This document shows positions 9,907 through 12,668 of a stretch of 64,000 nucleotides of DNA, one piece after another; within the stretch, counting starts at the first letter, position 1; each line of letters opens with the position of its first letter. The DNA is from Massalongia carnosa. Taxonomy: Eukaryota. The notes beneath the pieces were generated by a model, which was not told where the DNA came from, made no database searches, and worked only from the letters and a program-made list of their open reading frames with translations. Position numbers and translations under genes: made by a program. Where the stretch lies: assembly GCA_965645245.1 (NCBI GenBank), contig OZ287069.1:1426001-1490000 (forward strand), read 5' to 3'.

Positions 9907-10919
9907 ATGACGAACACCCGTTCCCAAAGCACCTTGATGGACGACATAGTCCCCGACCCCCAGGAGATTGTCGGATTGACGCAGGCCCAATCTAATCAAA
10001 TCTTCGCCCTACAAAAGAAGAAAGCCGAGGCGGAAGCGAAGGCGGCCGAGGCTGAGGCTAGAATTGCCGAGTCCAAGGCATTGGTCGCCGAGAAGGAGGT
10101 GGAAAAATGCAGCTAGAAATCGACTGCATGCGCCGAGAATCTGACGCCCGAATAGCGGCCGTCATTCCTGCTGGCAAGCCGAGTCGTGTCGTCGGCGATG
10201 ACGACGAGGACCTAGGTGAGATCCCTCTCGAAGTAAGAAGCATAGCACCCCGTTTCGCGGGCCTACCACAGGACGAGATCATCAAGATCTTTTCAAATAA
10301 ATTCAAAGCCATCAACCTCTCCCGCCTCCGACACATGCACGGCATGCAATACGAGTCATACAAGGATCAAGACCGCATCGGCATCGAAGACGGCGCCTTG
10401 AGGTTGAGAAAGGCATCCGGGACCTACAAAGATTTCGGAAAGACAGTTCATGACGTCTGGACCGAGAGCTTCATCAACTACACCTCGATCATGGTCAGTC
10501 TTTTCGGGAAATCGAGTCAACAGCTTCACGCCACCATGTCGGCATTCCACGGAAAAATCCTCACGCTGGCCAAGGTGTACGAGTGGCAGGAAGCAGTCCT
10601 CCCCCTCGCCATCGAAACCCACACCTACATCATCGCGTCTCAGCCATCCGACGCATCCCAATGGAAAATGCCCGACGAATTCCAAGCTCGATTCTGCACC
10701 CCCCTCACAGTCCTACGCCGTCGCCGCTCACGATCCCCGCCATCCCGACGACCGACCCCGAGAGGAGACAGGGCCGAGAGGGCCGAGAAGGCAGCGGGGG
10801 AAATCTGCGACAAGTACAACAGCGGCACCTGCACCTGGCCGTCGTGCTACCGACAGCACAAATGCAAATCGTGCGGCGCGGCTGGGCATGGCCAGAAGAC
10901 ATGCCCAACGAAGAAATAG
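9907..10919 (+). CDS. YR retrotransposon Gag-like protein (coiled-coil N-terminus, CCCH and CCHC zinc fingers); one-base frameshift in an A-run at about 10103-10107
   Basis: ATG at 9907; the frames of ORFs 9883-10116 and 10107-10919 join if GGAAAAATG had one more A; C-terminal CDKYNSGTCTWPSCYRQHKCKSCGAAGHGQKTC. Confidence 0.82.
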
Positions 10920-12668
10920 GGGGTTGGTGCAGGAGGCAGTAGAATAGCTTCAATAGCTGAATTCATGACGTCCCATCCCTGCTTACCTGCACCAATCAGA
11001 CCAAATACAATCCCTTCGTTTCAACTCGTAGACGCATCTCGTCAGCGTTTGAAAGACAGCCCATCTCCCCTCGTACCGTCCGCATGGGCAACCCTACTTC
11101 AAGAGTATCCGGGCCCCCTCCGAGTCCATCTGCCCATGATCCTTCGTTTCGGAGTACAAATCGGATACGAAGGCCCCACAGACATCCTTCGGATCGAAAA
11201 AAATCTGACATCAGCGAATGAGGACCCGGAAACGATCGAGAATAAGCTTCAAGAGGACCTCAGGAAGGGCCGAGTCAGACGAATAGCCGCCCCGAGTCAG
11301 CCATTTGTGGCCTCCCCCCTCGGCTTGGTCCCGAAACATGACGGAGGATGGCGACGCATTCATCATCTGTCTCATCCCAATCAAACATCAGTCAACGACA
11401 ACATTCCAGAAGAGGCATCCAAATTACAATACGCCAGACTCGACGACATTATTCAATTGATTCTGTCAGAGGGCAAAGGTGCTGTCATAGTGAAAAGAGA
11501 CGTCAAAGACGCCTTTCGAAACGTTCCCGTCGCACCTCATCATCAATGGCTTCTGGGTTTCGGATGGAATGACGAATTCTACACCGAGACATGCCTTTCG
11601 TTCGGACTGTCGACGGCCCCGTTCATCTTCAATCTTTTTGCGGAAGGCTTTCATTGGATTTTGGAATCCTTTCTACAATGGAGATTACATCACTATCTAG
11701 ACGACTTCGTTGCAATTTTCCCATCCGAGACATCGTCAGAACGATTGCACCAAGAAACAAAAGCCTACAACATTCTCACCGACATTCTCGGCATCCCGAG
11801 AAACGACTCAAAAGACGCCGAGGGAACGACAGCGACAGTCTTCGGACTCGAGGTCGACACCATCAACAGTCTTATTCGTCTGCCAGCGGACAAGCTGGAA
11901 AAAGCGAGAATCATCACTACAAAGGCACTAAACGAGACGACAATCAGCCTCGGCGACATGCAGTCAATAGCGGGCTTCCTAAGCTTCTGCGCACAGGCAG
12001 TCAAATTGGGCCGAGTCTTCTTACGATTATTCTGGAATTTTATAGCCTCATTTCCCTCGGGCAGTCATCATCGGGTCAAAAGAAGAATTCCCACATGGGT
12101 CAGACAGGATCTCATCTGGTGGAACAAACTTTTAGTGGACTTCAACGGTATTGTCTTCTTCGAGATGTCAACACGAGACACGATCAAGGTGCATACGGAT
12201 GCATGCCTCACGGGTCTCGGAGGCTATTTTCAACAAGCCAACGAGCTCGTGAATCAAAAAAACGCATGTAGGGCCCGAGTCCTAGTCCTCAATCAGGAAG
12301 AAGCACCGAGCATAAACGTCCGAGAAGTCGAGGCTATCCTTCTAATCCTTCAGAAATGGGCGCCGACATGGCGACATCGACAGATCCTTGTCTTTACCGA
12401 CAGCAACACAGCATACACAGGATTCACGAATCTAACCCTCAAGGGACCGGCCAACGCGCCTCTACGAGAAATACTGTCCATAGCTGCAAAGTGGGACATC
12501 GTACTACGTTGTCAATGGATCAGTGGCACTTCCAATGGACTAGCAGATGCCCTGTCACGTTTTGATGATGAAAGATTGGCTAACTTTTGCCCTCATTGGC
12601 AGAACCCATACAATTCGATGAACCTCCCTCCACCTACCTATCCTCCACACCAGGGTCAGCCCTGGTAA
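10920..12668 (+). CDS. YR retrotransposon reverse transcriptase-RNase H (first ATG 10965; frame open from the gag stop)
   Basis: SPLGLVPK..WRRIHHLS, DVKDAF, LSFGLSTAP, HYLDDF; RNase H TDAC / E / TDS / NGLADALSR. Confidence 0.95.
   Translation, partial: GVGAGGSRIASIAEFMTSHPCLPAPIRPNTIPSFQLVDASRQRLKDSPSPLVPSAWATLLQEYPGPLRVHLPMILRFGVQIGYEGPTDILRIEKNLTSANEDPETIENKLQEDLRKGRVRRIAAPSQPFVASPLGLVPKHDGGWRRIHHLSHPNQTSVNDNIPEEASKLQYARLDDIIQLILSEGKGAVIVKRDVKDAFRNVPVAPHHQWLLGFGWNDEFYTETCLSFGLSTAPFIFNLFAEGFHWILESFLQWRLHHYLDDFVAIFPSETSSERLHQETKAYNILTDILGIPRNDSKDAEGTTATVFGLEVDTINSLIRLPADKLEKARIITTKALNETTISLGDMQSIAGFLSFCAQAVKLGRVFLRLFWNFIASFPSGSHHRVKRRIPTWVRQDLIWWNKLLVDFNGIVFFEMSTRDTIKVHTDACLTGLGGYFQQANELVNQKNACRARVLVLNQEEAPSINVREVEAILLILQKWAPTWRHRQILVFTDSNTAYTGFTNLTLKGPANAPLREILSIAAKWDIVLRCQWISGTSNGLADALSRFDDERLANFCPHWQNPYNSMNLPPPTYPPHQGQPW

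Follow-up and report, generated by a model that had tools for sequence, protein, structure and literature searches.

Several retroelements make one of their proteins from a spliced RNA. In avian sarcoma/leukosis virus the gag AUG and the first codons of gag are spliced onto env. Foamy-virus Pol comes from its own spliced mRNA instead of from a Gag-Pol fusion, and it carries no Gag part. Splicing yields the gag RNA of the copia element, and an intron lies within the coding region of plant Ogre elements; we know of no copia/Ogre-type element that grafts a Gag leader onto its integration enzyme. The subject here is a tyrosine recombinase (YR) retrotransposon copy found in 64,000 nucleotides (nt) of the Massalongia carnosa assembly GCA_965645245.1 (contig OZ287069.1, positions 1,426,001 to 1,490,000, forward strand). 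This whole stretch is termed the window, and positions are counted from its first letter. The recombinase gene of the element has no AUG at its start, and its product is very probably made from a spliced RNA in which the N-terminus of Gag is joined to the recombinase at 10215/12603. This reading is based on comparison with related elements and not on RNA from the window genome.

Retroviral env mRNA resembles the proposed RNA in several ways: the donor is in or near the start of gag, the acceptor is at the end of pol before the 3′ gene, and the 3′ gene is translated from the gag AUG as a Gag-leader fusion, with the unspliced RNA serving for Gag, Pol and the genome. In the window element, however, the 3′ gene encodes an integration enzyme and not an envelope, the leader would have about 100 residues, a coiled-coil-like segment included, as opposed to about six, and no ends of the long terminal repeat (LTR) type were detected. 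The likeness to foamy-virus Pol is that a retroelement enzyme is produced from a spliced subgenomic RNA and not by frameshift or readthrough; it differs in that the reverse transcriptase (RT) of the window element apparently stays on the Gag-readthrough route and the recombinase alone is split off. In copia and Ogre, too, host splicing sets the ratio or the reading of element proteins, but these have DDE integrases inside pol.

In structure, the window element is similar to fungal elements of the Ngaro/DIRS order, which have gag, RT/RNase H and YR in this order and no methyltransferase (PMC3783388; PMC3266345). The YR frame of such elements is described as either in the RT frame or shifted (PMC3783388). 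In the open-access passages of these two papers the word ‘intron’ does not occur, nor does ‘splic’ in those of PMC3266345, and the expression of the shifted YR frame is left open there. Introns or splicing of YR-element genes are likewise not mentioned in the passages of three further papers (PMC6681497; PMC4157794; PMC8547959), and the sole intron mentioned in those of another is an artificial marker intron (PMC7192593). Splicing to a YR gene thus appears to be undescribed in these passages; its novelty is provisional, as the founding Ngaro paper or reviews may cover it.

The YR frame opens behind a TAA at 12581–12583. A first-pass annotation of the window had pointed to the absence of an ATG for about 120 codons, and this is correct: the first ATG stands at codon index 122 (12950). 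In an alignment of 21 YR homologues (A1), the residues W33, Y44, L70, W73, G80 and H105, all of which precede this ATG, are invariant or nearly invariant. The AlphaFold model based on A1 has a predicted local distance difference test score (pLDDT) of 82.9 and a predicted template modelling (TM) score of 0.71, and residues 11–130 are confidently folded in it (block pLDDT 85–96). In Foldseek the model matches Cre chains best, over about 325 aligned columns (E 3.4e-10 to 1e-8; TM 0.61–0.66 when normalised by target). As modelled, the recombinase is a Cre-like protein of two domains, an N-terminal helical core-binding domain and a C-terminal catalytic domain.

Phage_integrase of Pfam matches the window YR with E 0.0016 and 18.7 bits, below the cut-off of 27.1, and among the A1 members it matches seven and Phage_int_SAM_1 six; no PDB sequence was hit by the YR profile at E 0.01 or better. 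In A1, K218 is invariant, R175, R316-W317 and Y325 are nearly invariant, and a GHSFR motif is present. These are putative catalytic residues, assigned by analogy with Cre. Since the N-terminal 120 residues are folded and conserved in a Cre-like protein, they must be translated.

A scan of metagenome contigs with the YR alignment yielded 78 related loci, 28–52% identical. In most of these the YR frame opens one or two codons ahead of the shared opening, and its first Met is usually tens of codons inside, at a position that is not conserved. Judged by these comparisons, the YR frame is without a conserved start across the family.

Splice acceptors were counted at 36 representative loci, in the stretch between the opening of the YR frame and the first conserved YR block. 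A phase-1 YAG is present in all 36, and 33 of these have CTRAY 8–40 nt upstream. Phase-0 YAG is found in only five loci (four with CTRAY at the same distance) and phase-2 YAG in six (again four). In the window, the branch site GCTAAC and the CAG are placed where the first-pass annotation had put them, and the tract between them (12585–12599) has 11 pyrimidines in 15 nt. The largest group of relatives is like the window and has T[GA]CT[AG]A[CT]-N3-TGYCCNCAYTGGCAG/, where the slash marks the splice site. Other lineages have a phase-1 acceptor in divergent sequence: CCACAG/ located 13 nt past the branch, TCTAAC…ATAG/, GCTAAC…ACAG/ and CTGAC…TTGCAG/. In eight loci (L003, L005, L006, L024, L026, L027, L028 and L069) the RT frame stops ahead of the acceptor, in L006 by 326 nt. 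An alternative acceptor in the window, aaaag/gg at 12710/12711, was considered on the basis of the protein P0022 (see below) and rejected: its tract is purine-rich, its use loses conserved N-terminal residues, and it lacks the support of relatives.

The proposed donor in gag, AG/GTGAGA, was annotated as phase 1. Codons of the gag frame start at positions divisible by 3, and G10215 is indeed the first base of a codon. Only one other GTRAR occurs in the gag sequence scanned (up to 10261), GTAAGA at 10233, which is in phase 0. In all 23 related loci that have a Gag N-terminus, the codon of the homologous Gag glycine is GGT, shortly upstream of the conserved Gag core; MAFFT aligns this glycine in a single column for 19 of them. 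The codon that follows varies (GAG, GAA, AAG, ACG, ACT or ATG), and the resulting donor pentamers, all in phase 1, are GTGAG (12 loci), GTAAG (4), GTGAA (1), GTACG (2), GTACT (2) and GTATG (2). A replacement of Glu by Lys merely turns the donor GTGAG into GTAAG. As background, 907 Gly codons were counted in 14 of these elements, and 23.5% of them are GGT; the share in the window element is 13%. The pattern points to conservation of the donor at the RNA level rather than at the protein level.

The two sites fit each other. The YR codon occupies 12602–12604, an exon starting at 12603 needs one base, and the donor gives one, so that the join is exactly in frame, as had been annotated. The pairing itself also stands: the donor and the acceptor joined in the first-pass annotation are the ones conserved in relatives, and the check it had offered, conservation of GGTGAG in gag and of CTAAC…YAG at the RNase H end in homologues, is borne out in the form of the GGT donor and of CTRAY…YAG. 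Thus a conserved, phase-compatible donor lies upstream and an acceptor just before YR, as is expected of a spliced subgenomic RNA. The signals of the window alone do not go beyond chance; comparison with relatives takes them far beyond it.

Substitution patterns suggest where translation of the YR frame begins. Over the 54 nt before the acceptor, in 18 distinct sequences, column variability is 1.13 at RT codon position 3, 0.76 at position 1 and 0.40 at position 2, and it is lowest at what would be the third positions of the YR frame. Past the acceptor, the third positions of the YR frame are the variable ones (1.58 versus 1.01 and 0.92; protein-guided codon alignment of 18 loci, 37 gap-free codon columns). 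At the acceptor the coding signature of the RT frame gives way to that of the YR frame. Upstream of it the signature is that of RT, and therefore the six YR-frame codons there do not look translated in the YR frame.

The RT frame runs past the acceptor by 11 to 647 nt across loci. In the window it ends 66 nt beyond it, and the RT/RNase H and YR frames share 85 nt, the RT stop included. The offset between RT and YR is −1, +1 or 0 depending on lineage, while the phase of donor and acceptor stays 1/1. When the exons are joined in silico, 12 of 18 loci keep an open frame over 60 codons. The remaining six joins carry in-frame stops, and five of those loci also have stops in gag.

A joined form from a relative is present in the databases. 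P0196 is a protein of 324 amino acids (aa) from ENA, encoded on a contig of 2222 nt. Its residues 1–62 match residues 73–134 of P0265, a Gag whose source name is ‘hypothetical protein V8E54_004747 [Elaphomyces granulatus]’, and the match ends at the glycine after an acidic run. Past that glycine P0265 continues with Glu-Ile-Pro, as does the window Gag. The rest of P0196, from residue 62, shares 90% identity with the recombinase P0079, beginning at residue 6 of the latter. The glycine is common to both parts, which is what a phase-1 G/GN junction predicts, and the junction is homologous to the one proposed for the window on the Gag side and on the YR side. The coding sequence of about 972 nt together with an intron of 2.3–2.8 kb would not fit on the 2222-nt contig, and therefore the intron-less joined form is physically present. 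It would be either a cDNA or a processed genomic copy.

A second fusion of a Gag N-terminus with a recombinase, P0022 (375 aa, on a contig of 11084 nt), has a different junction. The join comes after the Gag segment F-x-G-L-x-x-D-D-I-L and directly before G-Y-x-T-A-I of the recombinase, and about 40 conserved recombinase residues are gone. When P0022 was used as query against 1.84 billion representative proteins, no other protein matched from residue 1, and P0196 surfaced. Intron-less forms were not found among the 78 metagenome loci. The joint 10215/12603 is absent among the 15 joints listed, of 16, for the contigs of four sequencing runs; these are apparently DNA assemblies and hence uninformative on splicing.

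Several points weigh against the splicing proposal and should be set out together. At 2.4 kb, the intron would be very long by fungal standards. As splice signals, GTGAGA and the 15-nt tract are acceptable, not strong. The branch site and the CAG of the largest group of relatives lie within conserved RT-frame codons (Ala/Thr-Asn/Asp-x-Cys-Pro-His-Trp-Gln), where protein constraint alone could keep the signals; it is therefore the donor, P0196 and the other lineages that carry the case. With respect to the donor, the 23 loci were sorted into 12 lineages by our own grouping, and the GGT fractions multiplied over these come to 1.4e-8, a product of lineages that are not fully independent in view of shared ancestry, with the homologous glycine picked by eye before alignment. 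P0196 is a single case, with a frameshift and a six-residue deletion further along. P0022, with its different junction, could be a deletion derivative or the result of an alternative splice. A search with the window Gag leader among longer proteins found the intact family Gag P0268 and no fused form.

A further point of this kind concerns gag of the window copy, which, as assembled, is frameshifted in the proposed exon 1. The frame from the ATG at 9907 stops at 10114–10116, because the run at 10103–10107 has five A and is one A short. An extra A behind 10102 is present in all four sequencing runs compared, and six A are also implied by P0268. This family Gag of 327 aa (39 member sequences) has no interruption where the window copy breaks and continues through the acidic stretch and a Gly-Glu pair. 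The lesion may be a genuine frameshift of the window copy or an assembly error in a homopolymer. The first-pass annotation had the Gag coiled coil fused to the recombinase. This holds for the family consensus; in the window copy the 1-nt deletion cuts the coiled coil.

The gag and RT/RNase H genes are in the same frame with an in-frame stop or stops between them, usually one, at 24 of 24 loci examined (the region corresponding to window 10917–11010; L003, L007, L009, L010, L015, L026, L043 and others). In relatives the gag stop is often followed by CAA, e.g. TAG CAA TTA, and the window TAG by GGG. A hairpin begins 6 nt past the window TAG (−34.5 kcal/mol, z −3.39); two of 200 shuffled sequences were equally stable. 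The arrangement resembles programmed stop-codon readthrough and probably produces Gag-RT.

Other ways to express the recombinase can be considered against these data. One is initiation at a non-AUG codon, TTG at 12587, with either the full-length RNA or an internal transcript that is not spliced as the messenger. This TTG stands second in the YR frame, and 22 of the 29 loci with an x-[V/M/L/I/F]-S/P-S/T opening have ATG, GTG or TTG there (GTG 13, ATG 6, TTG 3), the others having ATT (3), GTT (3) or TTT (1). But in the RT frame its first base is the third position of a variable codon, and the TG after it begins a conserved Cys codon (TT at loci with Phe instead). An ATG at this place is therefore incidental, and ATT, GTT and TTT occur as well. 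The surrounding stretch has the substitution pattern of the RT frame, the context is poor (C at −3 and C at +4), the codon lies 2.7 kb into the RNA, and it is missing from lineages with another type of acceptor. As the gag donor and P0196 are also left unexplained, a TTG start seems very unlikely.

A −1 ribosomal frameshift within the 85-nt overlap would yield an RT-YR or Gag-RT-YR polyprotein. It accords with the position of YR, in the −1 frame relative to RT and overlapping it, with the same overlap in many relatives, and with the distant relatives P0197 and P0234, which have RT and YR in one long protein. However, no X XXY YYZ heptamer occurs in any frame between 12570 and 12668. Neither the lineages in which the offset is +1 or 0 nor the eight loci in which the RT frame has ended before YR coding fit such a mechanism, and it offers no explanation for the conserved GGT donor or for P0196. 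We regard it as highly improbable.

It might also be thought that the splice signals are fortuitous and that this copy, or the family, no longer expresses its recombinase. The frameshift in gag of the window copy agrees with this, as does the degenerate state of many relatives. Against it, the RT and YR frames of the window copy are intact, and the signals are conserved across lineages. In addition, the family is multi-copy and near-identical, with 54 members for P0001 and 39 for P0268 and with contigs of the sequencing runs that are mostly at least 99% alike. Loss of expression is accordingly a very doubtful reading. Initiation at ATG 12950, the first AUG of the YR frame, is scarcely credible, as it would remove the first 122 residues and with them the confidently folded part of the Cre-like two-domain match and its conserved residues, at a Met whose position is unconserved among relatives, and it too leaves the gag donor and P0196 unexplained.

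Splicing from gag to YR is thus the reading that we adopt. The features of the element are given in Table 1.

Table 1. Features of the YR retrotransposon copy in the window, with positions numbered from the first letter of the window
Feature	Position	Strand	Basis or remark
YR retrotransposon copy	9684..14002	+	Approximate extent; the match of X3 and X6 run contigs to the window is confined to 9684 to 13978-14002
Direct repeat of 49 nt, two copies, 5′ untranslated leader	9781-9829, 9855-9903 (9781..9903)	+	Repeat search; 98% identity
gag	9907..10919	+	Coiled-coil-like N-terminus, conserved core, Cys/His-rich C-terminus; open reading frames (ORFs) 9865..10116 and 10062..10919
Proposed exon 1, coding part (Gag N-terminal leader)	9907..10215	+	With the extra A of the consensus, 103 codons and one further base
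Proposed 5′ splice donor GTGAGA, phase 1 (AG/GTGAGA)	10216..10221	+	Sequence and conservation
Proposed intron, 2387 nt, with the remainder of gag and the entire RT/RNase H	10216..12602	+	Homologous introns in relatives 2330-2758 nt
In-frame TAG between gag and RT/RNase H, candidate programmed readthrough site	10917..10919	+	Hairpin downstream
RT/RNase H frame, 582 codons, no methyltransferase domain	10920..12668	+	Pfam
Branch-site consensus GCTAAC	12579..12584	+	Contains the TAA stop behind which the YR frame opens
YR ORF, −1 frame relative to RT	12584..13750	+	ORF list
Proposed 3′ splice acceptor CAG, phase 1	12600..12602	+	Exon 2 from 12603
Proposed exon 2, coding part (Cre-like YR and stop)	12603..13750	+	ORF, model, codon-position signature
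First ATG of the YR frame, codon index 122	12950..12952	+	Within the folded N-terminal domain; conserved residues upstream

Pfam matches in the 582-aa RT/RNase H frame are solely RVT_1 (E 1.7e-12) and RT_RNaseH (E 1.1e-4, under the curated cut-off). The order gag, RT/RNase H, YR, with no methyltransferase after RNase H, is that of Ngaro-type elements (DIRS order). No direct repeat of 12 nt or longer was found that links the 5′ end (9600–9950) with the 3′ end (13600–14100), and terminal or split repeats are absent by this search; the element ends are known approximately, and short or diverged end repeats could escape it. The element is Ngaro-like on gene order; the split direct repeats (A1 ... 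B1 A2 B2) by which Ngaro is defined were not found, and membership is unconfirmed.

Some of the related loci have properties of their own. At positions 83–4381 of L007, the RT and YR genes of one copy precede, by about 950 nt, the gag gene of a second copy in the same orientation. Such a head-to-tail arrangement is expected of elements whose integration proceeds from circles or multimers. Long contigs of the relatives L025–L028, L037, L046, L059 and L069 have TAA/TAG stops throughout the three genes, and the GGT donor is still present in them. In L025–L028 and L069, where the YR N-terminus is still recognisable, the CTAAC…YAG acceptor is also kept. These loci look old and mutated.

Elsewhere in the window, at 6416–7333, there is a remnant of a pogo/Tc5-type DNA transposon. 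Its HTH_ABP1_N and HTH_Tnp_Tc5 domains are followed by the beginning of DDE_1, and stops interrupt the sequence. A 59-nt unit occurs in three tandem copies at 8697–8873; the summed depth of the surrounding region, 8400–9000, is very high in the runs X1 and X2, and it therefore belongs to a separate high-copy repeat. Directly downstream of the YR element, at 14088–17340, is a LINE-like (long interspersed nuclear element) non-LTR retrotransposon. It has an ORF with zinc knuckles, followed by an Exo_endo_phos_2 endonuclease and further frames broken by stops.

The proposed expression of the element can be outlined as follows. Full-length unspliced RNA would serve as the genome and as messenger for Gag, and readthrough of the single in-frame TAG probably also yields Gag-RT/RNase H. 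A fraction of the RNA would be spliced from the donor G/GTGAGA (10215/10216) to CAG/ (12602/12603), with GCTAAC as the branch, and 2387 nt would be removed. Translation of the spliced RNA from the gag AUG would give a protein of about 485 aa, with about 103 residues of Gag leader and 382 of recombinase in the family consensus. The coiled-coil-looking leader might then tie the recombinase to Gag assemblies. We infer that splicing takes place in the window host, that it is partial, and that the leader brings YR to complexes of Gag and cDNA.

The scheme may extend to a broad clade of fungal YR retrotransposons, a generalisation for and against which we see the chances as evenly balanced. One transcript would give Gag by termination, Gag-RT/RNase H by readthrough and Gag-leader-YR by a splice of 2.3–2.8 kb, with the branch site and acceptor laid over the last conserved RNase H codons and the leader delivering YR to the Gag/cDNA particle. 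If true, such a clade-wide programme would answer the question of how elements of the DIRS order express and package a recombinase that has no AUG. The Gag-leader splice would represent a concrete and directly testable mechanism for DIRS recombinases, which are often out of frame and without a start, and it would explain why automated annotation calls such genes fragmentary. GGT-GAR in gag and CTRAY…YAG at the RNase H end, both in phase 1, would provide markers for annotation and for the competence of copies. It would also mean that subgenomic splicing in the style of retroviruses either arose or persisted in elements with a Cre-like integration enzyme.

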